Of a stretch of DNA of 64,000 nt, positions 16,391 through 61,603 are shown in pieces; position 1 is the first letter of the stretch; every line of letters begins with the position of its first letter. The notes beneath the pieces were generated by a model. The model was not told the DNA's origin. It ran no database searches and worked only from the letters and a program-made list of their open reading frames with translations. The DNA comes from Candidatus Firestonebacteria bacterium RIFOXYD2_FULL_39_29. Lineage in GTDB: Bacteria > Oederibacteriota > D2-FULL-39-29. The translations under genes were made by a program, and so were the position numbers. The DNA lies in assembly GCA_001778375.1 (NCBI GenBank), contig MFGV01000018.1, positions 47,022-111,021 of the forward strand, given 5' to 3'.

Positions 16391-16548
16391 AGTTTTAACC
16401 GCTTTTGAAATATAAAAACCAAGCCAGTGCGCTTCAGCCAGAGCAATTATTTTTTTCCAGGCAAGCTTGTGCGGCTTACAACCGCCCGGTAGTTCCGGTT
16501 TTGACAGAACAAAGGTATCTATGGCAAACTTCTCTTCTTTGAGTATCT

Positions 16549-22894: not shown

Positions 22895-24060
22895 TTACTG
22901 TATCTGCAGTGCGTACACTTTTCCGTCAGTTGAAGTAAATGTAATATTTGTATACTCTCCAAACCCGTCATCCCAGCCGCCAAGAACTGGCATTGCTTTC
23001 ACGGCAGCGCCGGTAGTCACAGGCCAGCCGCTTCTGAGAATACCGTCAGAGGCAGAGATACAATAACACCTTCCGTCATCACTTCCGAAATAAACCCACC
23101 CGTTATAAACGATAGGTGAAGATTTTATCGCCCCGGCGGTTGTAAACTCCCATATCGGTGTTCCGGTTTCACCGTTAATCTTGTACATCTTTCCGTTATT
23201 TGCGCCGAAATAAAGCGCTTTTGGAGACTCCCAGGCCCAATAAAACGGAACCGTTTCAATGGCGCTGCCTATATTATAATTACCGTCTTCCTGACCACCA
23301 CGATTCTTCCACCCGTCAGGGATTAACGTAAGATTTACGGAAGAGCGGCAATACATCTTTCCATCAGTTGAGGGTATGAAGAGATTATTTGAGGCTCCAA
23401 ATTGGTATCCGCCGTCAATAAACGGAGAGGACTTTATGCTTGAACCGGTAGTCAGCGTACTCAAGACCTGTCCGTTTACCGTGTTTACTCTGTATAAAGA
23501 ACCCCCTTCAGAGCCTATCCAGCAGGAGCTTACACCCGGAGTAAACTCATCAACAGCTGCCGAGCCGGTCAGATTCCCGGAAATCGCCGTGCTGGTATCC
23601 CAAATAACACTTCCGGTAGCATCGTCTATTTTGAAAAGTTTACCGTTCGCGGCCCCGATATAAATACTTCCGCCGGTCATAATCGGCTCTGCCTTTACAA
23701 CCGCGCCAAGATTAATCGTCCACCCTCCGGTTGTCGTTCCGGAAGTACCCTGATCTTTTATCTTATAGATGTAGCCCGCGTCATTAGCGATATAAATGAA
23801 GGTATTACCGTTTTCCATGGTAACCTGCGGGGCAGAACTAATAGCGCCTGTTGTTTCAAAAGGCACCGTCCATTTAGCGCTCCCGTCATTATTCAGAGCA
23901 TACAGTTTTCCCGCGGAGGAACCCATAAACAGGCCCTGCTCTGTGTCCCTGTTGATTGCGACAGGACTCGTAATCTGTTCGTTAACCGCCGTTGCTACAG
24001 TAGCAGGATATTGCGAGTCAACAGGAGGCGGCGCGGGAGCAAACACCGTAACACCGGTCG
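22895..24060 (-). other. C-terminal PQQ-like beta-propeller of the giant protein
   Basis: Blades GKLYALNNDGSAKW, GYIYKIKDQG, GKLFKIDDATGSVIW, GSLYRVNTVNGQVL, GKMYCRSS, GKMYKINGETGTPIWEF, GRCYCISASDGILRSGW, GKVYALQIQ. There is no T9SS CTD at the extreme C-terminus. Confidence 0.55.
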
Positions 24061-27000: not shown

Positions 27001-30000
27001 ATTCATCTATACCAACAGCCGTCATCTTGTTCTGATTCGGATCCGGCTCAAGCTGAACCCAGCGTATATGGTTAGACCAGTCATAAGTATCTTTCGGTGC
27101 CGCAGCCGGAGTAGCAGACCAGCCGCCCGCAGAAGTCCACGTAATATAACTAAGTTTTGTTGAAGTAAAATCCACGGCAACCGCAACTGCTTTGCCGCTG
27201 CTTTTTTCAAAAGCAACATCAGCTCTAAATCCGTCAGACGGTTCCATCGTAGTATCCGCCGCAGGAAGCGCGCCCCACGCAGCGCCGGTCCAGACGCAGA
27301 CATCCCATCTTGAAGAACCCGAGAGTGAAGCAAAAGCAATATTGTTTGAGGACGACGCCGTATCAGAAGCAATTCTTATCCAGTTAGCCGTCGACGCAAT
27401 GTTAGGCCCAGTTCCCTGAGACGCAAGCCATATCGAACCGTTCCACTGATCATACGTTGTTCCTGTACCGGCACCCCAGATTACCATACATTTACCCGAG
27501 GTATTTTCCCAGGCAATATCAAAGCATTGTTTACTGTTAACCGCGGCCGCAGTCGAAAGGGTTTTACCGTTACCCCATACAGAACCGCTCCATCTTAAAG
27601 CATAAATATCGGAATTAGCATCCAGAGTCGCAAGCATTATTTCCGCAGTTCCGCTTCTTTGTTTCAATCTCACCCAGTAAACTATACCTGTAGTCCCGGC
27701 ATCATACGTAGTTTCATTCGTCCAGGAGGTACCGTCCCAAATCCTGTAAGCTATCTCATTTGAAGCCGCACCGGTAGAGTAAACCACCATACATCTTCCC
27801 GTTGTCTGTTCATACGCAATATCAAAACCTCTATAAATGCTGTTATTTGAGCCGATGCCCGAGACATTCCATTGAGTCTGCCAGGAGTTTGTCAAACCGT
27901 CATATTTTAAGACAGACATAGTGCCGCCGCTGGAAAGAACCCCTGCCATTTTCTCATTCCTGAAAACAGGGCAGGGTTTTGTAATCACCCATCTTATGGT
28001 AGCCGTAGCCGCCGTAGCAGTCTGCTCGCTGCCCCATGCCGACCCGCTCCAGAGTTCATACTTTGGATTTGTTAAACTTCCCGAGCCGTAAATGATAACC
28101 CCTGCCGCCGCACCGGGAGCTCCGGAAACCGCTGAAGGGGAATTGCCGTAGGTTCCTGTATTTGGGACTTCATCATAAGCTCTTATTGCAAAATAATACG
28201 TAGTACTCGGAGTTAAACCCGAAACCGTCCTGTTTTCTGTAACCCCGGCATTAACCGGTGTCCAGGATTGACTATAGGTAGTCGCCGCATTCCAGGTTGC
28301 CAGATTCGTCACAGGAGTGGGTGCATATTTAACAGTGTACCCTCCGTTCGGCGGAGCCTGCAAGTTAATGCCTGTCCCATTGTCCCCGGGCGCAGTCCAG
28401 GAAAGATTTACCTCTCCCGCATAATCTCCGGTAACCGCAGACAGGCTTGTTATCTCTGACGGCGCAGTAACATCAGCACCGGTAGTTCCCGAATTACCCG
28501 TAAGATTTGAAACACCTCCCAAACTTCCCGCTTTATCAACCGGTTTTATAGCAACGTAATACAAAGAGTTTGCATTAAGTCCCGTTATACTCCTCGTTTC
28601 CGTACTTCCTCCCGCAACAAAACTTGCCCAGGAGTGAGTATAAGTAGAAGCCGCATTAAAGTCCACATCAGTCCCCGAAAAGTTCCCCTGCGCGGAGGTT
28701 TTATATTTTACCGAATAATTGCTGACAGTTCCCGAAGCAGCATCATCCCCCGGAGCTTTCCAGGAGAGATTTAAAATACCTTCCGCTCCCGTAGAAACCG
28801 AAAGATTAGTGATAGCCGACGGCGCTGTTGTGTCCTTGTTTATATAGAAGACATCATTTTGCGATACGGCATTTGTCAGATTATCGTAAGCTCTGACAGA
28901 AACATAATTAACACCCTCCTGCAGTGCCGCAAAATCCACCGTAAAGTTAGTCGTGTAAGTAGCGGCATTCAGTCCGGTTGCGATATCCGTCCAGTCCTTT
29001 CTGATGCTTCCCGTCTGCCCCGTCGCAGTTGTTACTTTATACTGCACATTGTTCAGAAGAGAACCGTTGTCGGTGAAATCTACATCATAAAGTGTCCCGG
29101 CCGCATTCCTCCAGGCCGTATCCCCTGTCTGGTTATTGGTAATTGTCGGTCCCTGGGTATCTTTTTTTACATAGAACACGTCGTTTTGCTGTTTCGTATT
29201 TCCGGAGTTATCGTAAACCCGGACCGAGACATAATTCGTACCTTCGGACAAAGCGGTGAAATCCACAGTCCAGTTTGTCGCATAAGACCCGGCATTTATT
29301 CCCGAGGCAATATTCGTCCAGGCTTTAATAGTCGAACCGGTAAGGCCGGTTCCGGAATATACGGTATACTGCGCGTAAGAGAGCTGTGAACCGCCGGCAT
29401 CAGTGAAATCAACATCGTATACGGTTCCCGCAGCACTCCGCCAGGTATTATCACCGGCCTGATTATTGGTAACTACCGGTAAAGTAGAGTCTTTCCTTAC
29501 ATAAAACACATCGTCAGAAGTAATAACTCCGCCTGCATTATCATAAGCTCTGACGGAAACGTAATTACTCCCGTCAGCAAGCACGTTATAATCAACACTC
29601 CAGTCTGTCGCATACGAAGAAGCATTTATTCCGGTCGCAATATTGGTCCAGTCCTTTATAAGGGTGCCTGTTTTTCCTGTCGCCGAGTACACCGCATACT
29701 GCGCATACGAAAGGTTGGAGTTCCCCGTATCAGAGAAATCTACATTATACACAGTCCCGGCAGTATTTCTCCAGGTATTATCACCTGTCTGATTATTGGT
29801 AAAAGAAGGCGCTAGCGCATCTTTCTTGACATAGAAAGCATCCGTAAGAACAGTTGAAGAAGTCTGATTATCGGAGATCCGTACAGAGACATAATTTGTC
29901 CCGTTTTGAAGGGCAGCAAAATCCACCTGCCAGTCGGTCGTATATGTCGAAGCGTTTATTCCGGAAGCAATCGCTGTCCAATTTTTAAGCTGACTGCCTG

Positions 30001-45000: not shown

Positions 45001-48000
45001 CCGAAATATAATTCACGCCAATCTGGCAGGCGGAAAAATCTATCGTAAAATCCGTAGTATAGGTGGAGGCGCTAACCGTGTTTGCAATATTTGTCCAGTT
45101 CTTAAGCTGCGAACCGGTAAGACCTGTTCCGGAGTAAACCGCATACTGAATATTATTGAGTAAAGAGGCCGTGTCCGAAAAATCCACATTATAGGTTGTC
45201 CCGGAAGAAGCTCTCCAGGTATCGTCCCCCGTCTGGTTATTGGTAACTAAAGGAGGAACCGTATCTTTCTTCACATAAAACACATCATTCTGGGAGGCGG
45301 TATTTCCCGCGTTATCATAAACACGGACGGAGACATAATTGATTCCCTGCTGGCAGGTACCGAAGTCAATGATCCAATCCGGGTTATAGTCAGTGGAATT
45401 AATAGAAGATGAGAAAGTAGTCCAGGGCTTAATCTGGGTTCCGGTCTGCCCCGTTGCAGAATATATCGTATACTGAACATACGAGAGCTGCGAAACTGCG
45501 TCGGAGAAATCCGTATTATAAACGGTACCCGCGGTGGTCCGCCAGGTATCATCTCCCGTTTGATTGTTAGTGATCCCCGGAGCCACGCTATCTTTCTTTA
45601 CATAAAATACATCATTTTGAGAAACGGTATTTCCCGCATTATCATAAGCGCTTACCGAGACGTAATTCGCTCCCTGCTGTAACGAAGCAAAATCCAGTTG
45701 CCAGTCGGTTGTATATGCTGAGGCATTTATTCCCGTTGCAATATCTGTCCAATCTTTAAGCACGGTACCTGTCTGGCCCGTAGCCGCACACACTTTATAC
45801 CGGACGTTACTTAAGAGCGCGCCACCGGTTTCAGAAAAATCAACATTGTAAACAGCACCTGCCGCAGCTCTCCAGGTATCATCCCCCGTCTGATTATTCG
45901 TAACACCCGGCGCAGATGCATCTTTCTTTATATAAAACACATCATTTTGAGAAACGGTGTTGCCCGCGTTATCATAAACTCTCGCGGACACATAATTCGT
46001 TCCCGCGACAAGAGATGCAAAATCCACCTGCCAGTCCGTCGTATAAGTAGTAGCATTTATTCCGGTTGCAATATTTGTCCAGTCCTTTAAAACCGTCCCG
46101 GTTTGTCCTGCCGCAGAACACACCTTGTACTGAACGTTGTTAAGAAGAGAGGTTGCATCCGAGAAGTCCACATTGTAAACCGTACCGGCCTCCGATCTCC
46201 AGGTATCATCGCCCAGCTGGCTTACCGTTATCGCCGGATTAGCTATATCTTTTTTCACATAGAATACGTCATTTTGCACCGCATTATTGCCTACGGTATC
46301 ATAGGCTCTTACAGAAACATAGTTCGTCCCTTCCTGTAAAGAAGAATAGTCCACCTGCCAGTTGGCTGAATAAGAAGAAGAGTTGATCCCCGTCGCAATA
46401 TTAGTCCAGTCCTTAAACTGCGAGCCGGTCCGGCCTGTAGCGCTATAGACAGTGTATTGAACATTATTTAAAAGCGAACTTGCGTCGGTAAAATCCACAT
46501 CGTAGGAAGTTCCAGCCGAGGTACGCCAGGTATTATCACCTGTTTGGTTATTTGTAAAACCGGGAGCAGTTGTATCTTTCTTTACATAGAAGACATCGGT
46601 TTGCGAAACGGTATTTCCTGAATTATCATATGCTCGGACCGAAACATAATTCGTCCCCTGCTGTAAAGATGCGTAATCCACCTGCCAGTCTATGGTGTAA
46701 GTAGCGGCATTTATTCCCGCTGCTATATCTGTCCAATCTTTCAGAACTGTTCCCGTCTGACCTGTTGCGGCGCACACCCTGTACTGGACATTATTAAGAA
46801 GCGAGGTCGCATCAGAAAAATCAACATTATATGTCGTCCCGGAAGCTGCACGCCATGTATCATCCCCGGTCTGGTTGTTTGTTATTCCCGGATTTACACT
46901 GTCTTTCTTAACATAGAACACGTCATTTTGAGAGAAAGTATTTCCCGCATTATCATAAGCCCTGACCGAAACATAATTTGCTCCCGCTTGTAAAGAGGCA
47001 TAATCCACCTGCCAGTCAGTTGTATAAGTAGTCGCGTTTATTCCCGTTGCAATATTAGTCCAATCCTTAAGAACTGTTCCGGTCTGACCTGTTGCTGAAC
47101 ATACTTTGTACTGAACGTTACTAAGAAGCGAGGTCGCATCAGAGAAATCTACATTATATGTTGTCCCTGAGGCGGCTCTCCAGGTATCATCGCCTGTCTG
47201 ATTATTTGTTACTCCGGGATTACCCGTATCCTTCTTCACATAGAACACATCATTTTGAGATACGGTATTTCCCGCATTATCATAAGCCCTGACCGAAACA
47301 TAATTACTCCCCTGCTGTAAAGACGCGTATGCTACCTGCCAGTCAGTTGTGTAAGACGCCGCATTTATATTTGTTGCTATTGTCGTCCAGGTGACCAGCT
47401 GCGAACCGGTCAACCCCGTTGCGGAATAAACAGCGTACTGCGCATAATTTAAATTCGCTCCGCCTGCATCAGTAAAGTCCACATTATATGTTGTTCCCGA
47501 GGCAGCTCTCCAGGTATTATCCCCCGTTTGATTGTTCGTTACTCCGGGATTACTTGTATCTTTCTTTACGTAGAAAACATCGTTTTGTGCCAGCGTGTTT
47601 CCCGTATTATCATAGGCTCTTACCGAAACATAATTCGTCCCCTGTTGTAAAGACGCATAGTCCACTTGCCAGTCGGCAGTATATGTGGCAGCATTAATAT
47701 TGGTCGCTATAGTTGTCCAGGTAACCAGCTGCGAACCGGTCTGGCCCGTAGCAGAATACACGGTATACTGAACATAATTTAATAGCGAGGTCGCGTCGGA
47801 GAAGTCCACATTGTACGTCGTCCCCGCTGCGGCCCTCCAAGTATCATCTCCGGTCTGGTTGTTTGTTATCCCGGGATTCCCTGTATCTTTCTTCACATAG
47901 AACACATCATTTTGAGAAAAAGTATTTCCCGAATTATCGTACGCTCTTACCGAAACATAATTCGTCCCCTGCTGTAAAGACGCGTACGCTACCTGCCAAT

Positions 48001-50938: not shown

Positions 50939-51212
50939 ACAATATTATATACCATCTCCCATATTACAGTAATTATACAACATTTTTTGTACTCTGTAAT
51001 GTATTTTTTTAAACATTGGTCAATATTAGATTACACCTTAAGTTTGCAGGGTTTTACTGAATTAAGTATGACGGGAAGCAGGGGAAGTAAAAGAAGCAAA
51101 TACAGTAGAAGAAGTAGAGGAAGTGCAATCAACAAAAGAAGAAAAGAACTGATTTTTAATAGGATTTTTACTGAATGGCTTTCGTAACTTTTATTACTTC
51201 ATTTTCTTCATC

Positions 51213-51270
51213 CGCCCAGGTGGATTTCGGAAAGAAAAGTTGTTAGATATTTAGACTTTCCTCAACTCCC
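51213..51270 (+). repeat. 60-bp repeat element, copy C (giant-gene leader)
   Basis: CCGCCCAGGTGGATTTCGGAAAGAAAAGTTGTTAGATATTTAGACTTTCCTCAACTCCC. The 3' flank (ATTCCTTTGCTTCTTTTACTTCATTTACTT) is shared with copy D. Confidence 0.65.
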
Positions 51271-51509
51271 ATTCCTTTGCTTCTTTTACTTCATTTACTT
51301 CGTTTTCTGCATTTGCTTCACTTGCTTCCTTCCTCAGCTTCTCCTCGGGAATCCCGTGCAGGAGGGCTGCTTGATAGGCCCTGCATTGCATTTCCCGCAG
51401 GCAAGGGTGGAGGTTTCAAATATTTTTTGCGATTTTAAAGCAGGTTTTTGATATTTTGTTTTTTTAAGCTTCTTTTTTTTTCTCATTTTGCCACCTTATC
51501 CCGATTTTT

Positions 51510-51568
51510 CCGCCTAGGCGGATTTCGCAAAGATTTATGGTTTGATATTTAGACTTTCCTCAACTCCC
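51510..51568 (+). repeat. 60-bp repeat element, copy D (giant-gene leader)
   Basis: CCGCCTAGGCGGATTTCGCAAAGATTTATGGTTTGATATTTAGACTTTCCTCAACTCCC. Confidence 0.7.
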
Positions 51569-51647
51569 ATTCCTTTGCTTCTTTTACTTCATTTACTTTT
51601 TCTGCTTTGCTTGCTTCCCCTACTTCTCTTTTCCCACTTTCATCATC

Positions 51648-51705
51648 CACCCAGGTGGATTTCGCGAAGACTTATGGTCTGATATTTAGACTTCGCTCAA
51701 CTTTA
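51648..51705 (+). repeat. 60-bp repeat element, copy E (overlaps 3' end of peptidase ORF)
   Basis: CACCCAGGTGGATTTCGCGAAGACTTATGGTCTGATATTTAGACTTCGCTCAACTTTAC. Confidence 0.6.
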
Positions 51706-52085
51706 CTCACTACATGCATAATTTTATTATACATGTTCTCTTCTACTACACCAATTATATCACTTTTATTTATTTTATGCACTACCGAATCCTTAGAATC
51801 ACCTTCAACTGTGATCAGACCTGTTTTATTGTTCATTCCCGTTATTCTATGTATCAAGAACCATGACCGTGTTTTATAGCAGATAATAGATCCTACTTTC
51901 ACTTGTTTAGAATTTATAATTTTGATCTTAGAATTCGCCCTGATAGTCGGACTCATTGACCCGCCAAACACTTTAATACGAATACTTCCTTTATTTATTA
52001 TTTCATCAGCTATTATATCTCGAGCTATTTTTTTATTCACCCCTGGGAAATCCCCCATGAAGCAAATAGGTCGGTGTCCGGTCAT
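51672..52085 (-). CDS. S24/S26-family serine peptidase-like protein (LexA/signal-peptidase fold; Ser-His variant)
   Basis: 137 aa. VFGGSMSPTIRANSKIKIINSKQVKVGSIICYK...FLIHRITG...ITVEGDSKD matches the G-[DG]-S-M-x-P-T ... [KH]-R-[IV] ... GD pattern. His replaces the usual general-base Lys, as in SipW/Sec11-type enzymes. The last ~10 codons overlap a copy of the 60-bp repeat element. Confidence 0.4.
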   Translation of the reverse strand: MTGHRPICFMGDFPGVNKKIARDIIADEIINKGSIRIKVFGGSMSPTIRANSKIKIINSKQVKVGSIICYKTRSWFLIHRITGMNNKTGLITVEGDSKDSVVHKINKSDIIGVVEENMYNKIMHVVSKVERSLNIRP

Positions 52086-53236
52086 TAGATCACCGGAATT
52101 GTGAAGATAAACCTGCTGCCTTTCCCAAGCCCGTCAGATTCTGCCCAGAGTTTTCCTTTGTGAAGTTCTATTATTTTCTTGCAGATCGCGAGTCCAAGCC
52201 CGAAGCCCGCTTCCAGTTTTTTTAGGTGCTGATCCACACGGTAGAACTTGTCAAATACTTTTTGAAGATTTTCTGCGGCAATGCCTTTTCCGTTATCTTC
52301 CACAACAACTTTAATATCATTTTCGGATTTCTCAGCCCAGACACATACTTTCCCGTTCTCCGGAGTATATTTTACGGCATTCGTTACAAAATTAACAACG
52401 ACCCTGCCTATCTGGTCCATATCTCCTTTGAAAAGCAGCTTTTCACAGTCATATTTTTGCCCGGACAAAGAAGTTCCCATCACCACTTCAATATTCTTAA
52501 GACTTGCAACCGGTTTCACCGTGACAGGAATATCATCCATTATCTCCGGCATTTTAATATCCGTTATTTTTAATTCCCAGAAACCGGATTCCATTTTGGC
52601 AAAATCCAGAAGATTATCAATTAACTTTCTAATCTTATCCGCATTTCGACTTATCATCTTCAGGAGTTTTTGATTTTCCTGTGAATTATTCTTAATAAGC
52701 GTTTCTTCATCAACACCCTCGTCATCCATAAGCAGCTGAATTGCTCCGGAGATAGAAGCTAAAGGAGTTTTAAGTTCATGTGAAACTATGGAAAGAAATT
52801 CGTCCTTCAGCTTATCCATCTGCTGCAAAGATATAACCTGAGATTTTAGCTTCTTTGTTTCACAAGCTTTTATTATAAGCGCTATAAGCTGATCAATATT
52901 ATACGGTTTATGTATAAAATCAAAGGCACCCTTTCTCAAACTTTCAATAGCTGTTTCCATGGTACCAAAACCAGTTGCCATTATTACCTCTATTCCCGGT
53001 TTCATTTCTTTCACTTTACCAAGAACTGTTATCCCGTCCATTTCAGGCATTTTAATATCGGAAATAATAACATCAACATCCTCTTTTTCCGCTTTTTCAA
53101 CGCCAAGTTTACCATTCGCAGCTGTTAAAACATTGTAACCTTCATTCATAAGTGTAAATGAAAGCATTTCCCTTAAATCCTGTTCATCATCAATTACTAA
53201 AACCGTCCATTTTTTATCCACCTGTTCTCCTTTCAT
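52085..53236 (-). CDS. Hybrid response-regulator/histidine kinase (N-terminal receiver + HisKA + HATPase_c)
   Basis: Receiver (LVIDDEQDLREML...ISDIKMPEMDGITVL...KPYNI), then the H-box (SIVSHELKTPL), and N/G boxes (NAVKYTPENGKVCV; DNGKGIAAENLQKVFDKFYRVD; GFGLGLAICKKIIELHKGKLWAES). Confidence 0.7.
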   Translation of the reverse strand: MKGEQVDKKWTVLVIDDEQDLREMLSFTLMNEGYNVLTAANGKLGVEKAEKEDVDVIISDIKMPEMDGITVLGKVKEMKPGIEVIMATGFGTMETAIESLRKGAFDFIHKPYNIDQLIALIIKACETKKLKSQVISLQQMDKLKDEFLSIVSHELKTPLASISGAIQLLMDDEGVDEETLIKNNSQENQKLLKMISRNADKIRKLIDNLLDFAKMESGFWELKITDIKMPEIMDDIPVTVKPVASLKNIEVVMGTSLSGQKYDCEKLLFKGDMDQIGRVVVNFVTNAVKYTPENGKVCVWAEKSENDIKVVVEDNGKGIAAENLQKVFDKFYRVDQHLKKLEAGFGLGLAICKKIIELHKGKLWAESDGLGKGSRFIFTIPVI

Positions 53237-54487
53237 TTACGGATTACTTTGCTCTGTTTTCTGAGGTTCCGCCTGTGTAATCGGCAGTTTAACAACAATG
53301 TTTGTTCCCTTATCCATTTCACTGATGATTTGAATTGTTCCGCCATTTCTAGTAATTATTCCATGACACAAACTCAGTCCCAGGCCTGTACCTTTGCCTA
53401 CGTCTTTTGTGGTAAAAAACGGTTCAAAAATATGATGCTTTACGTCCTCCGACATTCCTTTTCCTGTATCCGCGACGGATATTTCGATACATTCATCAAG
53501 CTGTTTTGTGGTTATAGTTATTATCCCGCCTGAGGGCATAGCATCAACGGCATTGTTACATAGGTTCACAATAACCTGCTGTATCTGATTTTTATTCGTC
53601 AATATCTGCGGCACCTGACTATACTTTTTTGAAACCTCCACATTTTTAACCTTTGACCAGGCCTGTACCAGGGTTAACGCCTGATCAATGGCTTCATTGA
53701 TATCAATATTTTCTTTCTCAAGTTTCTCTGTTCTCGAAAACGCCAGCAGATCACTGACTATCTTTTTGCACCTTCCCGTGGCATTCTCAATTGACTTAAG
53801 CGGTTTGTACATTGGATCATCTTCTTGTACTTTCTTCAGTATAGCCTGAGAATAACCGAGTATAATAGTAAGAGGATTATTTATTTCATGCGCGACACCT
53901 CCGGCTAATTGCCCGACAGCCGCCATTTTTTCGCTTTGACGCAGCTGTTTACCGGTAGATTCAAGCTTGCTTATTGCCTCATTTAGCTTCGCATTCTTTT
54001 CTTCAAGCTTCTCATATACATGATCCATCTCCATATCCAATGCTGCTCTCATAGTATTATCCTGGAAGAAAAACACCACTCCTGTTATTTCTTTCTGCGC
54101 GTTTTTTACCGGCCCGCCAATAATATTTAATCGCAGTTTAGAAGTTTTCAATTCGGTTTCTTTTACAATGTTTTCTTTTTCCCCCTTCAAAATAGAGTCA
54201 ATAATATCTTCCAGTTCCGCTTTAGCTATGACATCTTTGCTCTCCACGGCTTCAGACAAACCTACCAATCTTTTAAACGAAGCATTAATAAAAAGAATGT
54301 TTTTCTTTACGTCAAATATTATCTGACCAACACCCAGGGCTTCCAGCGTTTCGACACCCTTCATGAATTTTACAAGCTTAGGAAGGATTTCCTCATTGAT
54401 TATTTTTTTCATCTGGAAAGGAGTAATATTATCCGAGGTGAACCCGTGTTTTTTTAACCCTGAGTCAACGATCGCTTTTGCAAACAT
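53237..54487 (-). CDS. Cytoplasmic sensor histidine kinase with PAS-like N-terminal region
   Basis: No TM segments. H-box (VAHEINNPLTIILGYSQ), N-box (NLCNNAVDAMPSGG), and G-boxes (DTGKGMSEDVKHHIFEPFFTTK; GTGLGLSLCHGIITRNGGTIQIISE). It sits directly upstream of the hybrid kinase. Confidence 0.7.
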   Translation of the reverse strand: MFAKAIVDSGLKKHGFTSDNITPFQMKKIINEEILPKLVKFMKGVETLEALGVGQIIFDVKKNILFINASFKRLVGLSEAVESKDVIAKAELEDIIDSILKGEKENIVKETELKTSKLRLNIIGGPVKNAQKEITGVVFFFQDNTMRAALDMEMDHVYEKLEEKNAKLNEAISKLESTGKQLRQSEKMAAVGQLAGGVAHEINNPLTIILGYSQAILKKVQEDDPMYKPLKSIENATGRCKKIVSDLLAFSRTEKLEKENIDINEAIDQALTLVQAWSKVKNVEVSKKYSQVPQILTNKNQIQQVIVNLCNNAVDAMPSGGIITITTKQLDECIEISVADTGKGMSEDVKHHIFEPFFTTKDVGKGTGLGLSLCHGIITRNGGTIQIISEMDKGTNIVVKLPITQAEPQKTEQSNP

Positions 54488-54574
54488 CGGATTAACAAGA
54501 GCAATTTTCGAAATTATATTATTGTATAATTCGTTTCCTATAAAACCCCCTGTAAATTTTCGAATTATTATGGT

Positions 54575-55276
54575 TTACTTTGCGCCGTCAAAAAGCTCCG
54601 GATGTTTTACTTTATAATCTTCGATATAACCGTCTATCTTCCCGGGATAGCCCATGATAAAACGGCAATATTTATCTCCTTTTGCCCTGCATAATATTTC
54701 CTTTGCAACCAATTCTATTCCAAAACTAACCTCGCACCATCCTGCGGAATATCCTGAATTCATAAAACAAACACAAATATTAGAAGATTTTTTCATGGAA
54801 ACCCAGGAATCAGCTTCAAAGGACTGCGGATGATCATATATGAGATAAAAATTTTCATCCGGAGACGGCTTGCTTTCTTCAAAAATATCCACATAGGCCC
54901 AGCCTGAATACGCAAAATGTATAGGGCCTGAAGATAATTTTGCAATCGGATCTCTTACATCCATGGATTTATGAAATGCTTTTGCATCAGCTCGCCCTAT
55001 CGACCGAGCAATATCATAGAGGATACTGCCTGTTGCCTTATTCGCTTCTATTTCTTCCAGCCCCGGGTAAAGAGTTTTGATAAATTCAAAAAATTCCACT
55101 GACATGGATGACGCCCGGAGCAATATATATCTTTCCCCTCCGATTGTTATTATTCCTTTGGCAGGATTTTCTTCGCGTAAACTGAAATACTTTTTTACAT
55201 ATTCCGCTGCCTTCTCAAACAACGGCTCCATTGCTTGTGGCACTTTTACTGTTGAAATAGTCATACCCACCCCCAA
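54575..55276 (-). CDS. Hypothetical protein, possibly V4R/XylR-N-like ligand-sensing domain protein
   Basis: 233 aa and soluble, with weak resemblance to V4R hydrocarbon-binding sensor domains (ITIGGERYILLRASSMSVEFFEFIKTL...). Low certainty. Confidence 0.2.
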   Translation of the reverse strand: MGVGMTISTVKVPQAMEPLFEKAAEYVKKYFSLREENPAKGIITIGGERYILLRASSMSVEFFEFIKTLYPGLEEIEANKATGSILYDIARSIGRADAKAFHKSMDVRDPIAKLSSGPIHFAYSGWAYVDIFEESKPSPDENFYLIYDHPQSFEADSWVSMKKSSNICVCFMNSGYSAGWCEVSFGIELVAKEILCRAKGDKYCRFIMGYPGKIDGYIEDYKVKHPELFDGAK

Positions 55277-55498
55277 ATAATCGACATTTAAAATAAATTA
55301 ATTGTATACCTTTTCAATATTCCTAGTTTACCATGCGCTTATACTCAAGAAGATACATGAGTTTATTGAAACCTATTGTAATTTTAACCTAAAAAGAGCC
55401 TATTATTCAACAAAAACCTGTCAAATAATACCAATTTTCAAACAATAATATTTGATGTTTCCAATACTCTTTTTCATCATTCGCTGCCATCGCTCAAT

Positions 55499-55560
55499 CC
55501 GCCCAGGCGGATCTTGCAAAGGGTTTATGGTCAGATATTTATACCTTTGCTCAACTCCCC
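55499..55560 (+). repeat. 60-bp repeat element, copy F (between rSAM gene and V4R-like gene)
   Basis: CCGCCCAGGCGGATCTTGCAAAGGGTTTATGGTCAGATATTTATACCTTTGCTCAACTCCCC. Confidence 0.7.
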
Positions 55561-56579
55561 TTCTTTACCTGCTTTCGCAGGGCTGCCATTTCACATGCGG
55601 ACTTTGATTTCCCGTACAAACTTCCGTTTTCAAGCATAGCCAGACCGGGACACCTGTTACAATAACGGATATCTTTACAAATTACGCATTCTTTCAAGTC
55701 TTTAAGTTTCATGTTCCGTATTTTTTTTAGCACCGCGGAACTTTTCCATATTTCTTTAAAAGTTTTCTTTCTTAGATTTCCGGCAGAAAGCGGAATCTGC
55801 AGACAGGAGAGAACATCGCCGTAAGGATTTATAGCTACAAAGTTTTTACCGGCAGAGCATATAACATTTTTCTCAAGATATTTACTTGAATAGCGCCAAA
55901 CTGCGCAATGCTGCCTTACTACTTTTTGCAAAACATCATTTCCAATTTTTCCCCGGGTGTTTTCTGTACTTCCGTCATTTTTTGGCGCTATAACAGGGTC
56001 AAAAAGCATTTTAAAACCATTCTTTTTGGCAAATGCAGTTATTGCTTTTTTCTCCGGGTAATTAGACATCATAAGAGGAGTTTTAATCCTGGCACATATC
56101 CCGGCCTTTTTAATTTCTTTCAGCGCTTTCATAGTTTTATAAAACGAACCTTTAACGCCGGTAATTTCGTCGTGTACTTTTGCTTTTAAAGAGTAAAGAC
56201 TGGCACTTATCTCATTAATATTCAACAATTTAAGTTTTTTAATTCTTGAAGGAGTTAAGAGAGTGGCATTAGTCAGAATAGTCACCGCAAATCTTTTTTC
56301 CACGGCATATTCAAGTATTTCAAACACATCTTTTCTCAAAAATATCTCCCCGCCCGTAAATGCCAGGAAAAGACATCCCTCTTCCGCCAGTTGATCAAGA
56401 ACCTTTTTCACCTCACCAGTTGTCAGTTCCCTTTCTCCACTTTCCCCACTTTTTTCACTCTGCCCTCCGGGCAGATAACAATGCGAGCATTTCAAATTAC
56501 ACCTATAAGTTAATTCAATCATAGACCAGGCTGGAATATTATTTTCTTCGGTTATTATGGCAAGTTCAGCTTCTAGCAT
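55551..56579 (-). CDS. Radical SAM / SPASM-domain peptide-modifying enzyme
   Basis: CxxxCxxC cluster (ELTYRCNLKCSHCY), a glycine-rich SAM motif (LAFTGGEIFL), and a C-terminal Cys-rich SPASM region (C..C...C.CxxC: SCLQ...CVICKDIRYCNRCPGLA). Confidence 0.75.
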   Translation of the reverse strand: MLEAELAIITEENNIPAWSMIELTYRCNLKCSHCYLPGGQSEKSGESGERELTTGEVKKVLDQLAEEGCLFLAFTGGEIFLRKDVFEILEYAVEKRFAVTILTNATLLTPSRIKKLKLLNINEISASLYSLKAKVHDEITGVKGSFYKTMKALKEIKKAGICARIKTPLMMSNYPEKKAITAFAKKNGFKMLFDPVIAPKNDGSTENTRGKIGNDVLQKVVRQHCAVWRYSSKYLEKNVICSAGKNFVAINPYGDVLSCLQIPLSAGNLRKKTFKEIWKSSAVLKKIRNMKLKDLKECVICKDIRYCNRCPGLAMLENGSLYGKSKSACEMAALRKQVKKGS

Positions 56580-56833
56580 TTTTGAATTATTTTCCCGGCA
56601 AGAAGCTCCCTAATAAAAGCAACAACATCTTTTTCTGCCCTGACCTCGGAGATATCGTATTCCGACGCAAGTTTCTTTACCATACTGTTTTCAGCGGTAT
56701 TCTTTACTAACAATTTGAAAAGAAAAGTTCCGGTTGAATTTAATTTTACCAATTTCATCTTTTCCGGCTGAACGATATAATAACTGTTCTTGATCAACCG
56801 TGCCGCCACACCGCTTTTTATTTTATACGCCAT
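56573..56833 (-). CDS. PqqD-family peptide chaperone (RRE-type) protein
   Basis: 86 aa. The pattern (YYIVQPEKMKLVKLNSTGTFLFKLLVKNTAENSMVKKLASEYDISEVRAEKDVVAFIRELLAGKII) fits PqqD/RRE (L-x-L-N-x-[ST]-[GA]...[IL]-W...[DE]-[IV]...F-[IL]-x-x-L...G-[IL]-I). It overlaps the rSAM gene start by 7 nt. Confidence 0.5.
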   Translation of the reverse strand: MAYKIKSGVAARLIKNSYYIVQPEKMKLVKLNSTGTFLFKLLVKNTAENSMVKKLASEYDISEVRAEKDVVAFIRELLAGKIIQKC

Positions 56834-57516
56834 AAAACTCTCCAGAACCCCGTTTTTTTGAACTCCAATATGTTTTTTTCCACCGAGCTGATGAAATCAT
56901 AGCTCAACCCGGCTATCTTTTTCTCCGGCTTAAAGAGTATAACATTTCTTAAGAGCTTTGCCCACGCCCTCTCCGTTGCAATTGGTTTTAAAGCATTTTC
57001 CCGAGCTTGTTTTAGAAATAAAAGCTTTGGACTGCCAGCACTTTTATTCGTTCCCCCGCCTTTCATCAGTCCCATAAACGGAGTTCCATAAAGCTTCCAG
57101 CTTTTCCCCACCTTTCTTACTGCAACTATCTCATCACTTAAGACAACTCCGCATTTTCTACTGGCTTCCGCCACCGTAGTTTTACCCGCTCCGCTTATCC
57201 CCGTGAATATGTACCCCTTCCCCCGTGAAATAACCCCGGAAGCATGCAAGAAAAACCCGTTATGTTTCAGTAGTAAAGAAGAGTAAGTAAGCCGGAGAAA
57301 CGTGTCAAACGCATACTTATTGGGAAGTCCTTTGTAAACAAGAGTTATTTTAGCCGGAGTATTTTTAAGTGAAAACTCTTTATACCTTTTCTTTAGGATT
57401 TTGAAAAACGCTGTCTGATATTTTTCAGCTAGAGCGATACTACTGCCAACCCCGGCAATACACAAGTACAGCATTCTTTCACGTTTAATACCATTTTCCT
57501 TCATAATTATTTTCAT
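56818..57516 (-). CDS. HPr-kinase-related (HprK C-terminal domain-like) P-loop protein
   Basis: FFLHASGVISRGKGYIFTGISGAGKTTVAEASRKCGVVLSDEIVAV matches the HprK C-domain P-loop (LHA..V...G.G.L[IF]TG.SG.GKS..A..L...G..L.SD[DE]). This family recurs next to PqqD/radical-SAM genes in RiPP-like cassettes. Confidence 0.6.
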   Translation of the reverse strand: MKIIMKENGIKRERMLYLCIAGVGSSIALAEKYQTAFFKILKKRYKEFSLKNTPAKITLVYKGLPNKYAFDTFLRLTYSSLLLKHNGFFLHASGVISRGKGYIFTGISGAGKTTVAEASRKCGVVLSDEIVAVRKVGKSWKLYGTPFMGLMKGGGTNKSAGSPKLLFLKQARENALKPIATERAWAKLLRNVILFKPEKKIAGLSYDFISSVEKNILEFKKTGFWRVLWRIK

Positions 57517-58424
57517 AATTTTAGTGCTTTACCCAGTTTGGCAAGGGCCTTTTTATGTTTCACCTTATCCATCTTATTAATATTTTCAAGTTTCCACTTT
57601 ACCCCCGGAAGCTCTTCTACTCCATCAACATCCAGTAATTCCCACACCGGAGCGCCGCTTTTAAATGATATTAAAAACTCTTTCTCCTTTGATGTAAGTT
57701 TTTCATTAATTTCTTTAACTATTATTTTCCTGTACTCAACAAGTTCAGAATATTTAACATCCGGCACCATACCGGAAAATTCATTATCAAATACGAGTTG
57801 CATGTCGCTCAGATTTGGCGCCAATAGTTCCGCCATAGGGCGATTATGACTAATTAGATACACAATAAACGCCTTGCGCACTTGTTCGGTAATCCCTTCG
57901 TTTTTCAGGAGAAGCATTGCATCGAATATGTCGCGTGGATGCTGCCTGTCAAGCGCGGCACATAATTTCGAGCCAAATGTCTCAGCAAATGATAATACCT
58001 TAACAGATGTAAATCTTCCAAAAACTTCTACGGCTTTATCACACAAGGGCCTTTCTTCGCATTTATATATTGCCCCACGTATAGTTGTACTTGTTTCTAT
58101 TTTTATTTCCACATCATCTTCTTTTATATATAGTTTTGTAATAAGATTACCGCCAACTTTGTATTCTTTAATATTAACTGTTTTAATATTGTTTTTAATC
58201 CGGCGAGAAATATCAAGGAAACTATCATTAATGGCTGTTAGTGTTTCATTCCTTGGATAAATTTTGGTATATGTTAAATCTATGTCTACTGAATACCGGG
58301 GCATGTTTCTATAGAAGAAGTTTATCGCCGTTCCTCCACGCAATGCGAATTCTGTATCAAGAAATATATGTGGAAGGATTTTCATAAGCAGTTCGACTTG
58401 CCTATGGTAAATATTAGTAGTCAT
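57513..58424 (-). CDS. Nucleotidyltransferase, AbiEii/AbiGii-toxin family (DUF1814-like)
   Basis: N-terminal hallmark FALRGGTAINFFYRNMPRYSVDIDLTYT is the minimal NTase G-x-x-hh motif plus the D-I-D catalytic pair typical of AbiEii. It overlaps the HprK-like gene by 4 nt. Confidence 0.6.
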   Translation of the reverse strand: MTTNIYHRQVELLMKILPHIFLDTEFALRGGTAINFFYRNMPRYSVDIDLTYTKIYPRNETLTAINDSFLDISRRIKNNIKTVNIKEYKVGGNLITKLYIKEDDVEIKIETSTTIRGAIYKCEERPLCDKAVEVFGRFTSVKVLSFAETFGSKLCAALDRQHPRDIFDAMLLLKNEGITEQVRKAFIVYLISHNRPMAELLAPNLSDMQLVFDNEFSGMVPDVKYSELVEYRKIIVKEINEKLTSKEKEFLISFKSGAPVWELLDVDGVEELPGVKWKLENINKMDKVKHKKALAKLGKALKL

Positions 58425-59235
58425 GGTCTTGCTCCCCTTCAGGAACCACTATTTTATATTTTGAATTATAATGCCCCTTATCTGCAAGCTTTCTTTTACC
58501 GGAGCCAAAAGTTACCCTGCTGAGGTCTAAATACTTTACACAAGGAAGATTATGTTTCTCCGCCAAATACATAAACAAGCGTTTTGCTTTGACTGAAGTA
58601 CATCTTTCTAAAAGTGTTTGGACTAAGTTAGGCCGTAAGTCAAATAAACCGGATATTATGTGGTCCATCTCTCCAAAACTGCCGTTATATTGATAATCAT
58701 AGCAATACTCTAAAGCAGCTCTTTCCCTGGAAGAGATATTTAATTCATAATTTCCAAAATTATGTTTTACAAACCCTATATCATCGCAATTTTGAAGAAA
58801 ATTTGTCATAGTATATTTATACTTCTGATTCCAGTTATAGGTTTTAAACCACTTAGGTAATTTCCGGTGAGCAGGCCCAAATAATTTGACTTCCACAACA
58901 CTTGGATCATTTGGTATGTATTGAGCGGCGCCTTTCATTGCTAAAGCAGTTTTGCCTCCGGGATGAACGAGCAGTTTCAAATAGGTTTGAAGAGCATAAA
59001 CACCACCGCTCCAATCAACCCTATCTCCGGTTTTTATAAACGCACCAGGCCCTAGCCGTTTTAACCAGTTGCTTCTAACATAGGCATTTGCCAAAGAAGG
59101 ATATACACCTGCACTTTCAAGTGAGCATGACAGGGATACAGTATTACTCGGCCATGACTGGAGCAACTGGTTTATTATTGTTCCATTATTAGTATTCATA
59201 CTATGCATATTAGCACTATAATAAACTTTTGTCAA
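58414..59235 (-). CDS. Hypothetical protein, possible AbiEi-like antitoxin/regulator partner
   Basis: 273 aa, encoded immediately upstream of and overlapping (11 nt) the AbiEii-like gene, which is the canonical AbiEi-AbiEii order. The N-terminal region (SLANAYVRSNWLKRLGPGAFIKTGDRVDWSGGVYAL) is weakly AbiEi-like. Confidence 0.3.
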   Translation of the reverse strand: MTKVYYSANMHSMNTNNGTIINQLLQSWPSNTVSLSCSLESAGVYPSLANAYVRSNWLKRLGPGAFIKTGDRVDWSGGVYALQTYLKLLVHPGGKTALAMKGAAQYIPNDPSVVEVKLFGPAHRKLPKWFKTYNWNQKYKYTMTNFLQNCDDIGFVKHNFGNYELNISSRERAALEYCYDYQYNGSFGEMDHIISGLFDLRPNLVQTLLERCTSVKAKRLFMYLAEKHNLPCVKYLDLSRVTFGSGKRKLADKGHYNSKYKIVVPEGEQDHDY

Positions 59236-59348
59236 CTCAAAGGTTTATATTTGTGCTGATTTGCATAGTTTTTATGGACATATACGCACAATAATGAACT
59301 ATTAAATTAAGTCCGATAGTAAGATCAAAAACTCATTTCCAATGATTT

Positions 59349-61367
59349 TTACAGCCGCACCGGCATCATGATCATGGGGATTCCCATGTAGTAGAATTTC
59401 CGTTGTATTGCAAACACCGTATAATTGTGGAGCCATCTCGCCATAAATACTTCCTCGGGAAATACCAGCTGGCCTCCGAAGAAAATAGCACCGGGATATT
59501 TTCTAAGTATCTCAGGAGCCGCTCCGGAAACTTCGCTTACGGGGTCAACGCCGGTTAAAGCAACGCCTTCCGCGAATGAACCGGTTGAGCGGATATAATT
59601 AACATATTTATTTACATCCTCTTTTACTTTAATTTTAAGTTTATCAATCTCCTCTACTCCCTTAAATGCGCCGCTATCAACTATACCGACCTGAATAATA
59701 ACGAAATTCTTATACAACCCTTTGAAGATCCGTGAAATATTTAATAATGTGTGCAGGCCTAACCCGTTAAAACCATTCACTAATACTACAGCCGTCTTTC
59801 CGTTTTTAATATATTTCGGAGTGCTTGCCGTTGCTGCAGGTTCAGAACTGTCAACCGTGGGCATTACGGAAAGCACCAGGCTATCCAGGCGGTTCAATAT
59901 ATTTTTCGTATTATTGTAATGCTTTCTTATGAGCAGGGCGATTATCATAAAGCCGGCTGTTATTGTTAAAGTTATCCAGCCTCCCTCATAAAATTTTACG
60001 GTTATGACCGTGACAAGAATTGAAAAAGTAAGGACGAGACCTATACCGTTCAAAGCAAATTTCCTCTTCCACTTTTTTTCAGTTTTTCGTTCTTTCCACC
60101 AGTGCCTGACCATTCCAAGCTGTGAAAGCACAAATGTGATAAAGACATTAATGCTATAAAGAACAACAAGGAGTGTCACAGAACCCTGACTGAAATATAA
60201 GACAAGCAAAGAAGCACCACCCATCAGTAAAATCCCATTTTGTGTAACTAAGCGATCGGAGAGCATTGTAAACCGGGAAGGGAGCCACCTGTCCACAGCC
60301 ATATTCGCAATGACTCTCGGACCGTCTATGAAACCCGCCTGTGCGGCAACAAAAAGTATAGCTGCTTCCGATATGAGAGTGATCAGGAGCAATGTGTACC
60401 CCAGCGTCCCTGTCCCGAATATTTTTCCGAAAAGCACGGCGTTTAATGTCTTATTCGGTTCAGGAGTTACATTATACAGAAGATAAGCCACCAGAAGGCC
60501 GGTAACTACAAGAGCAAGAGAAATTGCCATATAAAGCATGGCTCTTTTTGCCGTTTTTACTTTCGGTTCACGAAGAATTGAAACCCCGTTGCTGACCGCT
60601 TCAATACCCGTATACGTTCCGGCACCCATACTATAGGCCCGAAGCAGGATAACACTGAGGCCAAAGAAACCGAGCTGGCCAAACGAAGTTTTAATATCAG
60701 CTCCCGTATTCACGGCTACTGAAGCAAGGTTTGAGCTGTGAGAGAAAATAGCATAAACTATAACAACAGCATGGGTGATAACAAAAACAAGAAATATCGG
60801 TAAAAGGATAAGTATTGATTCTTTCACTCCACGCAAATTCATAACGGTAATCAATACTATTAAAAAAGCGGCGAACCCCAATTTTAAATATTGCCACTCA
60901 GCAGGAAGAAAACTAAAAATAGCGTCTGCCCCGCTCGCTATCGATATAGTAATGGTCAGAACATAATCGATTATCAGAGCAGAACCTGCAGCCATACCGG
61001 CAAAAGGTGACAAAAGTTTTGAAGCTACTACATATCCCCCGCCGCCTGACGGAAAGAGTTCTACTATCTGCGAATAACTGGCGCTGATTATAGCGATCGT
61101 GATAGCCGAAGCAAGTCCGATAATTACAGCCAGATATACGTGCCCCTGCAAGGCCTTAAAAGCTTCTTCCGGACCATAACAGGCGGAGGAAAGCCCGTCC
61201 GCACCGAGTCCCACCCACGCAAAAAAAGCAATCAGGGCAAGATTATGAAATACGCCCTTTTCTTCGGGGTTCTTAGCTTTACCTATAATAATATTTTTAG
61301 CTTTTCGGAACAACCCGTGATTTTCCGTATCTCTTATGTCATCAAACACTTTTTTCGACATTGTCAT
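59349..61367 (-). CDS. APC-superfamily permease with cytoplasmic C-terminal domain, KimA-like (K+ or amino-acid transporter)
   Basis: 672 aa, with ~12 TM helices followed by a ~170-aa soluble domain. The N-terminus (NLALIAFFAWVGLGADGLSSACYGPEEAF) is typical of the APC/KimA family. RBS AAAGGAAG precedes the start. It is preceded by a structured leader with terminator. Confidence 0.55.
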   Translation of the reverse strand: MTMSKKVFDDIRDTENHGLFRKAKNIIIGKAKNPEEKGVFHNLALIAFFAWVGLGADGLSSACYGPEEAFKALQGHVYLAVIIGLASAITIAIISASYSQIVELFPSGGGGYVVASKLLSPFAGMAAGSALIIDYVLTITISIASGADAIFSFLPAEWQYLKLGFAAFLIVLITVMNLRGVKESILILLPIFLVFVITHAVVIVYAIFSHSSNLASVAVNTGADIKTSFGQLGFFGLSVILLRAYSMGAGTYTGIEAVSNGVSILREPKVKTAKRAMLYMAISLALVVTGLLVAYLLYNVTPEPNKTLNAVLFGKIFGTGTLGYTLLLITLISEAAILFVAAQAGFIDGPRVIANMAVDRWLPSRFTMLSDRLVTQNGILLMGGASLLVLYFSQGSVTLLVVLYSINVFITFVLSQLGMVRHWWKERKTEKKWKRKFALNGIGLVLTFSILVTVITVKFYEGGWITLTITAGFMIIALLIRKHYNNTKNILNRLDSLVLSVMPTVDSSEPAATASTPKYIKNGKTAVVLVNGFNGLGLHTLLNISRIFKGLYKNFVIIQVGIVDSGAFKGVEEIDKLKIKVKEDVNKYVNYIRSTGSFAEGVALTGVDPVSEVSGAAPEILRKYPGAIFFGGQLVFPEEVFMARWLHNYTVFAIQRKFYYMGIPMIMMPVRL

Positions 61368-61567: not shown

Positions 61568-61574
61568 GTACTTA

Positions 61575-61603
61575 AATTTAACACCATTGCAAATATTTGT
61601 CAA
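61575..61603 (-). promoter_or_regulatory. Sigma70-like promoter for the riboswitch/transporter transcript
   Basis: Minus strand: TTGACA-aatatttgcaatggtgt-TAAATT (17-bp spacer). Confidence 0.45.

Follow-up and report, generated by a model that had tools for sequence, protein, structure and literature searches.

A candidate RiPP-type maturation cluster in three pieces, with a conserved precursor gene four kilobases from its radical-SAM/SPASM enzyme, in a Candidatus Firestonebacteria genome

Do three overlapping enzyme genes of a candidate bacterium form an orphan peptide-maturation cassette, or is their substrate encoded within reach? The window considered here, that is, the whole stretch of DNA analysed, covers 64,000 nucleotides of contig MFGV01000018.1 of Candidatus Firestonebacteria bacterium RIFOXYD2_FULL_39_29. 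A preliminary description of it had noted three overlapping minus-strand genes for an HprK-related P-loop protein (here called ScmC-like), a PqqD-like protein and a radical S-adenosylmethionine (rSAM) enzyme with a SPASM domain, had read them as a cassette for maturing a peptide that is made on the ribosome and modified after translation (RiPP), and had seen no precursor. Coordinates and Pfam matches confirm the three genes (Table 1), with the HprK relation weak by sequence, and the RiPP-type reading is supported, while no curated family claims the cassette. The absence of a precursor holds for the upstream side only: a conserved precursor gene lies 4 kb downstream, and its counterparts stand beside the cassette across at least four phyla, so that the cassette can no longer be called an orphan. 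With a probability of roughly 80%, we conclude that the trio is the enzyme core of a RiPP-type maturation cluster whose precursor, peptidase, nucleotidyltransferase and exporter are encoded downstream, the pathway itself being predicted.

The precursor was recognized by comparison. Six related contigs (L001-L006) carry genes for the ScmC-like protein, the PqqD protein, the rSAM/SPASM enzyme and an S24 peptidase of 118-164 aa, followed by a small open reading frame (ORF), and the 50-aa window product is 65-79% identical to the products of these ORFs (MKKILKKKEKYEKPKIKSQKIFETATLACGKCYSGPIYQPACSSYPRNS in L002-L004, ...KYEKPALKSQKIFETSTLACGKCNSGPIKLPSCKGSQGKKS in L001 and ...KYEKPALKSQKIFETSTLACGKCKPGPIVQPSCTGFPKKS in L005/6) and 38% identical to that of L009. 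Across 33 codons of four orthologues, 10-14 differences were synonymous and 3-8 non-synonymous, and the frame is therefore under purifying selection; a Shine-Dalgarno sequence, AAGGTGG (51491..51497), ends four bases 5' of its ATG. A profile built from five precursors recovered one small ORF adjoining the ScmC-like gene in each of L009-L018 (E 1e-9 to 1e-4) and matched nothing in the window other than this gene, with no second copy. Extended to 14 sequences, the profile retrieved 6073 protein clusters of 45-74 aa, all labelled 'hypothetical' and none with a Pfam domain, and the window precursor likewise has neither an NCBIfam nor a Pfam model. As a side observation, one Acidobacteriaceae locus (L012) holds two precursor genes (905-1144 and 5074-5307) with identical cores.

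Motifs were counted in the top 120 matches of the 14-sequence profile. Every one of these ends in Ser, as do all 14 hand-collected precursors, from four phyla, and every one carries YxxPx[LFIMV], whose Tyr precedes the Cys of an invariant C-G-K by exactly 18 residues; two Cys are present in 114 of the 120, and the segment from the CGK Cys onwards reads C-G-K-[VIL]-x-x-T-Q-x-x-C-x-x-N-R-[KR]-x-S. Firestonebacteria precursors have a third Cys (CGKC) and a longer spacer, and that of the window accordingly combines a leader motif Y12-Q-K-P-A-L17 with Cys at C30 and C43, plus C33, and a terminal S50. In lasso-peptide leaders, YxxPxL at -17 to -12 is the conserved motif for recognition (PMC10368454), a distance rule that would put the start of the core at A29. 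Preceding the CGK Cys stand A-L-A or A-L-S in 116 of the 120 homologues and T-L-A in the window. Type I signal peptidases prefer small residues at -3 and -1, a rule by which cleavage would fall between A29 and C30, one residue away from the lasso-based prediction.

Among the enzymes, the PqqD protein (Pfam PqqD, E 8.7e-14) has as its top NCBIfam matches two PqqD chaperones of lasso peptides, NF033530 and NF033536, which score 32-34 bits, under their cutoffs, and domain maps of the related loci place its gene at the identical position in all relatives. The rSAM enzyme (Pfam Radical_SAM 1.7e-24, SPASM 5.1e-10) keeps both its CX3CX2C motif (C27, C31, C34) and seven SPASM Cys (C241, C259, C298, C301, C307, C310, C329), all invariant in nine orthologues from four phyla; its nearest solved enzymes are SkfB, CteB, PqqE and SuiB, and it is the only rSAM enzyme encoded in the window, just as every related locus has one such gene only. 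Models of the named rSAM systems SynChlorMet, GeoRSP, ACGX, mycofactocin, pyrroloquinoline quinone (PQQ), WgkB, AlbA, SkfB and PapB all score below cutoff, and no component of the cluster reaches the cutoff of any curated family. Given the Cys motifs, the adjacent PqqD gene, and a co-conserved short precursor with a conserved leader, the cluster is, as judged from sequence, an rSAM/SPASM RiPP system dependent on a RiPP recognition element (RRE) and a member of a large uncharacterised family.

The ScmC-like protein is harder to place. Its existing Pfam annotation, shared with all homologues, is PF27840 'ScmC', flagged 'weak'; TIGR04352 (HprK_rel_A) gives 16.4 bits where at least 200 are required, and the HPr kinase/phosphorylase equivalog TIGR00679 does not match the window protein and gives 19.5 of 240 bits for the L018 orthologue. 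Searched by sequence against solved structures, the ScmC-like profile returned only P-loop and PEPCK (phosphoenolpyruvate carboxykinase) fragments, and it took a fold search to recover a PEPCK/HprK-like fold, i.e. that of the HprK C-terminal domain with its P-loop. Within this fold, H91, G106, G109, G111, K112 and T113 have the spacing of H148, G163, G166, G168, K169 and S170 of the lasso kinase BsfK, whose catalytic residues served for the comparison (PMC10368454), and the motif of lasso HprK-type kinases, H-x14-G-x2-G-x-G-K-[ST], is kept. Functionally, HprK homologues of lasso clusters phosphorylate the side chain of the linear precursor's C-terminal Ser before leader removal and with little dependence on the remaining precursor sequence, a PqqD-type B1 protein speeds this phosphorylation, and a nucleotidyltransferase of the cluster puts a hexose on the phosphate (PMC8498205, PMC6993621, PMC10368454); pairs of kinase and nucleotidyltransferase are known from phosphorylated lasso-peptide clusters (PMC6993621, PMC10368454). 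The ScmC-like profile itself matched 20322 representatives at E<=1e-3 and 717 at E<=1e-30.

The downstream peptidase, first taken as mere context, proved to be a conserved member of the system, found beside the cassette in the relatives. It keeps GxSM, HR and GD motifs and a signal-peptidase fold without the hydrophobic anchor, and this fold, the putative nucleophile Ser in GxSM and the general base place it among the S24/S26 peptidases (clan SF); a public gene call has it start at 52058, which is possible. Peptidase and precursor share one stop-free frame in L001 (2705-3199), L005 (5107-5877), L006 (3809-4579) and L013 (5021-5707), with the peptidase first in Firestonebacteria and the precursor first in L013, one Acidobacteriaceae metagenome-assembled genome (MAG), and within the fused frame of L005 the precursor part is not preceded by a canonical internal start.

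To place the cluster more widely, an alignment of ScmC-like proteins was scanned against species-representative genomes, which gave loci from Acidobacteriota, a Thermomonas MAG, Nitrospirota and others, and the cluster components were mapped in 20 loci. The closest named homologue is that of a Candidatus Firestonebacteria genome (P0007, 77% identity). In Firestonebacteria, Acidobacteriota, Nitrospirota and Proteobacteria relatives, the trio always occurs with an S24/S26-type peptidase and a conserved peptide of ~50-60 aa. The order is precursor, peptidase, ScmC-like, PqqD, rSAM in Acidobacteriota and Betaproteobacteria, and PqqD, rSAM, precursor, ScmC-like, peptidase in Nitrospirota; this permutation between phyla argues for functional linkage, not merely inherited synteny. 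Six distant loci (L012, L014-L017, L024) have an NTP_transf_5 nucleotidyltransferase gene close to the cassette. Two hits of the genome scan that were tried as lasso comparators, L019 (Anaerolineales) and L020 (Cohnella), turned out to be neither a clean cassette nor a lasso cluster and were set aside.

Together, these loci show a core set of five genes with frequent accessories (NTP_transf_5, exporter), which by sequence comparison is complete in the window but split: the cluster comprises at least five, and probably eight, genes in three pieces. Sensor and two-component genes lie between the rSAM and peptidase genes, and by the same comparison they are a lineage-specific insertion; in L001-L006 and L021-L023 the rSAM gene either overlaps the peptidase gene or ends shortly before it. 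On the far side of the precursor, four genes separate it from NTP_transf_5: a giant gene, a PQQ-propeller gene with a type IX secretion system (T9SS) sorting tail, one for a 570-aa protein and one of TMEM260-like/TPR type. In L001, the closest named genome, the precursor is followed by NTP_transf_5, the ABC ATPase and the ABC-2 permease; the window NTP_transf_5 protein is 67% identical over 329 aa to the one encoded directly after the L001 precursor, the window NTP_transf_5 and exporter genes are syntenic with those of L001, and genes beyond the exporter are shared as well. The two-component and giant genes that had been singled out as an unusual context are thus indeed present downstream; the former are the insertion, and an orthologue of the latter also follows the precursor in L005 (6285-9455; 84.6% identity over the first 1057 aa), though not in L001. 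A simple terminator scan of the minus strand over 50900..59400 returned none.

Table 1. Cluster genes, intervening genes and repeats, in positions of the window.
Feature	Positions	Strand	Size and remarks
ScmC-like, HprK/PEPCK-fold P-loop protein, putative peptide Ser kinase	56818..57516	minus	232 aa
PqqD-family leader-binding protein (RiPP recognition element)	56573..56833	minus	86 aa; overlaps ScmC-like gene by 16 nt
Radical-SAM/SPASM enzyme, without fused recognition domain	55551..56579	minus	342 aa; overlaps PqqD gene by 7 nt
Small soluble S24/S26-type peptidase, putative leader peptidase	51672..52085	minus	Resembles endoplasmic reticulum/archaeal-type signal peptidases, Ser/His
Precursor peptide	51334..51486	minus	50 aa, MRKKKKLKKTKYQKPALKSQKIFETSTLACGKCNAGPIKQPSCTGFPRRS; 4 kb downstream of enzymes
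NTP_transf_5 nucleotidyltransferase, probable tailoring enzyme	15563..16552	minus	Pfam PF14907, 4.7e-32
ABC exporter, ATPase	14760..15389	minus	ABC_tran, 1.4e-28
ABC exporter, ABC-2 permease	13993..14763	minus	ABC2_membrane, 7.6e-11
Lineage-specific insertion between rSAM and peptidase genes	52085..55276	minus	Absent from L001-L006 and L021-L023
V4R/XylR_N sensor protein	54575..55276	minus	Domain calls
PAS histidine kinase	53237..54487	minus	Domain calls
Receiver-histidine kinase hybrid	52085..53236	minus	Domain calls
Giant gene	22895..50938	minus	9347 aa, largely tandem ~110-residue units
60-70-nt repeat, six copies	7906-7975, 8929-8998, 51211-51280, 51509-51578, 51646-51715, 55498-55567	minus	
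60-70-nt repeat, copy F	55498-55567	minus	Overlaps rSAM stop codon
118-nt direct repeat, downstream copy	51211..51328	minus	Includes element copy C
118-nt direct repeat, upstream copy	51509..51626	minus	Includes element copy D; 11 nt before precursor ribosome-binding site

Mechanistically, we posit that the PqqD protein binds the leader via YxxPxL (Y12-L17), in the manner of lasso B1 proteins, that the ScmC-like protein would then phosphorylate the S50 side chain of the leader-bearing precursor, and that the nucleotidyltransferase may decorate the phosphate on Ser50. The rSAM/SPASM enzyme would install one or more crosslinks, most plausibly thioethers, at C30, C43 and here also C33, the signal-peptidase-like protease would cut off the leader at (T/A)-L-(A/S), immediately ahead of Cys30, and the ABC-2 transporter would export a product of ~21 residues. 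Several points weigh against this picture. The phosphorylation site, the crosslink type and the cleavage site are all three ones that we infer by analogy; the HprK-related model TIGR04355 matches the ScmC-like protein weakly (25.6 bits, cutoff 200), and D128-E129 replaces the metal-binding pair D186-D187 of BsfK, one position closer. Homology of NTP_transf_5 to its L001 counterpart reaches 16552, with no ATG, GTG or TTG before 16390, which suggests either an unusual start or a loss of ~55 N-terminal residues, and that the lasso nucleotidyltransferases of PsmN/BsfN type belong to PF14907 is an assumption on our part. The exporter linkage is that of the window and L001; the best model matches of the rSAM enzyme are to heme enzymes, NirJ2 and AhbD (the latter with 153 bits), albeit far under cutoff; and a core that is nearly invariant among the top 120 homologues is unusual for an antimicrobial RiPP. 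Lastly, the fragmented cluster, together with an NTP_transf_5 gene that lacks a canonical start, implies that this genome may be losing part of the pathway by decay.

How do other explanations fare? Were the cassette an orphan, its enzymes would have no local substrate, or else the substrate would be the 19-codon ORF that directly follows the rSAM gene (55421..55480, MMKKSIGNIKYYCLKIGII), as had been considered before. This ORF exists and encodes a Cys, but it lies 17 nt after the repeat copy with no Shine-Dalgarno sequence, and it is not conserved in L021-L023, where the repeat is kept and the sequence after it is unrelated (first gene 77% identical); in L001-L006 the very intergenic region is absent, the peptidase gene overlapping or abutting the rSAM gene. 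ORFs this short are commonplace here (800 bp contain 16 of 20 aa or longer), and we rejected this one as the precursor; with a strongly conserved precursor 4 kb downstream, the comparisons bring the orphan explanation close to refutation. A precursor found elsewhere had been named in the preliminary description as one outcome that would overturn it, yet that finding counts against the orphan claim and not against a RiPP system. The other such outcome was a grouping of the rSAM enzyme with a non-RiPP clade, and it is indeed highly improbable that we are dealing with a cofactor or tetrapyrrole enzyme of NirJ2/AhbD kind next to an unrelated small ORF. NirJ2 (160 bits) and AhbD are its top NCBIfam matches; these scores, however, are ~30% of the 500-bit cutoffs, and the peptide maturase models WgkB, MftC and AlbA come just below them. 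Moreover, the rSAM gene always comes after a PqqD gene and, from phylum to phylum, is accompanied by peptide and peptidase, domain scans of the window ORFs found no heme or siroheme genes nearby, and the nearest solved relatives are peptide maturases. Because the NirJ2 and AhbD scores lie so far under cutoff, with the maturases close behind, the enzyme should therefore be placed outside any non-RiPP clade.

Two further explanations accept cluster and precursor alike. One, which we consider rather unlikely, is that the ScmC-like protein is not a kinase for the C-terminal Ser and instead acts on another Ser/Thr (e.g. for elimination and Cys addition) or serves the rSAM enzyme as an ATP-dependent scaffold or chaperone. 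The lasso kinase BsfK does phosphorylate core Ser3 and not the C-terminus (PMC10368454), and the D-E in place of a D-D pair, the low similarity to proven kinases and the presence of other Ser/Thr in the core all fit such a role; these other residues vary, however, whereas the terminal Ser is invariant in the 120 homologues and the 14 hand-collected precursors, and NTP_transf_5 often accompanies the ScmC-like gene, much as PsmN accompanies PsmK in a pair whose target is the terminal Ser. The second concerns the product: in place of an exported bioactive peptide, it might be a conserved intracellular cofactor or signal, comparable to PQQ or mycofactocin. The unusual core conservation fits a cofactor or signal role better, being nearly complete across thousands of homologues, with the pattern C-G-K-[VIL]-x-x-T-Q-x-x-C-x-x-N-R-K-N-S, unlike the hypervariable cores of bacteriocins; a PqqD protein, an rSAM/SPASM enzyme and a peptidase are the layout of PQQ and mycofactocin systems, and sensor and kinase genes are inserted in the operon here. 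We nevertheless find an intracellular fate rather doubtful, since the cluster of L001 is followed by an ABC-2 exporter with a syntenic counterpart in the window, partner oxidoreductases are not apparent, and Firestonebacteria cores differ noticeably from Acidobacteria cores.

What, then, could such a cluster be? Tentatively, though as a serious possibility, it may be one member of a very large unnamed RiPP class (>6000 precursor clusters, mainly from soil Acidobacteriota) that would combine lasso-type recognition, phosphorylation of the C-terminal Ser with possible phospho-glycosylation or nucleotidylation, rSAM/SPASM crosslinking and a signal-peptidase-like leader protease, and whose near-invariant core of ~18-21 residues suggests a conserved role (cofactor, signal, surface-related factor), not a variable antibiotic. 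If the proposed pathway is true, one peptide would be worked on by modules of two separate RiPP classes, with leader, recognition protein, kinase and nucleotidyltransferase of lasso type on the one side and radical-SAM chemistry of the sactipeptide/ranthipeptide type on the other, and with a soluble signal-peptidase-like leader protease as a third, unusual element. Uncultured bacteria of soil and groundwater carry this family in abundance, and with so conserved a core one may ask whether it serves a housekeeping function; the parts list (precursor, four enzymes, exporter) makes the system amenable to heterologous expression. For annotation, the lesson is that, where lineage-specific insertions break up a cluster, the precursor of a seemingly orphan cassette may lie kilobases away.

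The window also holds repeats that touch several of these genes. A two-hairpin element of 60-70 nt has six copies here, all on the minus strand, and others outside the window (L001 1771-1836, L021 4207-4269, L005 5931-5997). Between copies, compensatory changes occur in its first stem (GCAAAGG/CCTTTGC, GGAAAG/CTTTCC, GCGAAG/CTTCGC, GCGAAGG/CCTTCGC) and its second hairpin is TCCGCC-NN-GGCGGA; RNAalifold supports the second hairpin only, and Rfam offered no match to the element beyond a chance-level sroH. A copy follows the rSAM gene at the equivalent site in L021-L023, with the peptidase gene next, and in L001 a copy lies in frame within an intact rSAM gene, adding ~38 residues after CX3CX2C, which recalls the Rickettsia palindromic elements. 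The two copies of the 118-nt direct repeat, 83% identical, bracket the precursor gene, and in L005/6 an element copy follows the precursor at the same site as copy C of the window. Frames of 33 and 46 aa within 50939..51671 were rejected as genes, being translations of the 118-nt repeat; these spurious small ORFs end in ...NEVKEAKEWELRKV.

Upstream of the cassette, an AbiEi/AbiEii type IV toxin-antitoxin pair (57513-59235, minus strand), whose AbiEii stop and the start of the ScmC-like gene overlap, separates it from a gene for a 672-aa transporter of the amino-acid-permease family (59349-61367), which is syntenic with the cassette in L005 and L007; L007 has a toxin-antitoxin pair at the equivalent site (4702-6148), of a different AbiEi family (AbiEi_4). 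The transporter gene is preceded by a cyclic di-AMP (ydaO-type) riboswitch (61429-61576, minus strand, 68 bits). Surroundings related to type IX secretion lie on the minus strand at 18738-20450, 20537-22786 and 61644-62555, the proteins being a fusion of a 23S-rRNA-IVP domain with a PorV-like region, a PQQ-propeller with Por_Secre_tail and a PorV-like protein.

Large proteins adjoin the cluster in other phyla, too. Nine loci from Acidobacteriota and Proteobacteria encode a homologous secreted protein, 600-900 aa long and without a Pfam match, immediately upstream of the precursor (L010 2740-4842, L011 2005-4746, L015 2492-4870, L024 2112-4205, L025 4831-6895 and others), its stop overlapping the precursor start in L024, and it may be a sixth conserved cluster component. 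Proteins of ~1250-1300 aa, homologous to one another, adjoin the ScmC-like gene in L018 (144-4061, Nitrospirota) and L019 (6999-10727, Anaerolineales), the latter with a Peptidase_C25 domain. The giant protein of the window is without similarity to the 600-900-aa secreted protein, and BLAST gave no hit between it and the large cassette-adjoining proteins of other phyla.

How, finally, does the cluster compare with known systems? The closest layout is that of Haft's SynChlorMet (Scm; TIGR04248-TIGR04251, PF27840), a cassette defined by database models alone, which likewise has an HprK-related P-loop protein, a PqqD-like protein and an rSAM/SPASM enzyme in C-D-E order. However, the window has no match to ScmC (TIGR04249) at E<=0.01, its relatives reach 31-42 of the 125 bits required, the window proteins score 19.5 of 100 bits for ScmD and 93.7 of 400 for ScmE, cutoffs that the distant relatives also miss, and the window cassette lacks the second rSAM enzyme (ScmF). 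A literature search on SynChlorMet, ScmC, HprK/HPr kinase with radical SAM/SPASM, and PF14907 brought up nothing relevant, subscription journals being thinly covered.

Phosphorylated lasso peptides (paeninodin with PadeK, pseudomycoidin with PsmK/PsmN, Bradymonas with BsfK/BsfN) share with the window cluster a YxxPxL leader motif that keeps a constant distance to the core, a free-standing PqqD-type protein, the motif of HprK-type kinases, a precursor with Ser as its C-terminal residue, and both a nucleotidyltransferase and an ABC exporter. They differ in that the lasso cyclase (an Asn-synthetase homologue) and the transglutaminase-like B2 cysteine protease, neither of which appears in the scanned window ORFs or the domain lists of related loci, are here replaced by the radical-SAM/SPASM enzyme and the signal-peptidase-like protease, and in that the window core has conserved Cys and no ring-forming Asp/Glu at position 7-9. 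Maturases of sactipeptides and ranthipeptides (AlbA, SkfB, CteB, PapB) have in common with the window system an rSAM/SPASM enzyme, a Cys-containing peptide and a PqqD-like recognition element, but there this element is usually fused and here it is a separate protein; those systems have no kinase and use leader peptidases of other families, and the thioether is putative in the window.

With mycofactocin (MftA/B/C/E) and PQQ (PqqA/D/E/F), the cluster shares a small peptide, a PqqD-family chaperone, an rSAM/SPASM enzyme and a dedicated peptidase, as well as strong C-terminal conservation and a chemistry centred on the C-terminal part of the peptide; the MftC model gives the window enzyme 120 bits against a cutoff of 265. 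Those two pathways, in contrast, have no kinase and use other peptidase families, whereas the window has an exporter and no cofactor-dependent enzymes nearby. The peptidase, for its part, resembles soluble S26 maturation proteases (the nickel superoxide dismutase protease SodX, SipW/Sec11-type signal peptidases and SipA), and it scores below all of their curated cutoffs; it differs from them in being dedicated to a RiPP-type cluster and, in some relatives, fused to its presumed substrate.

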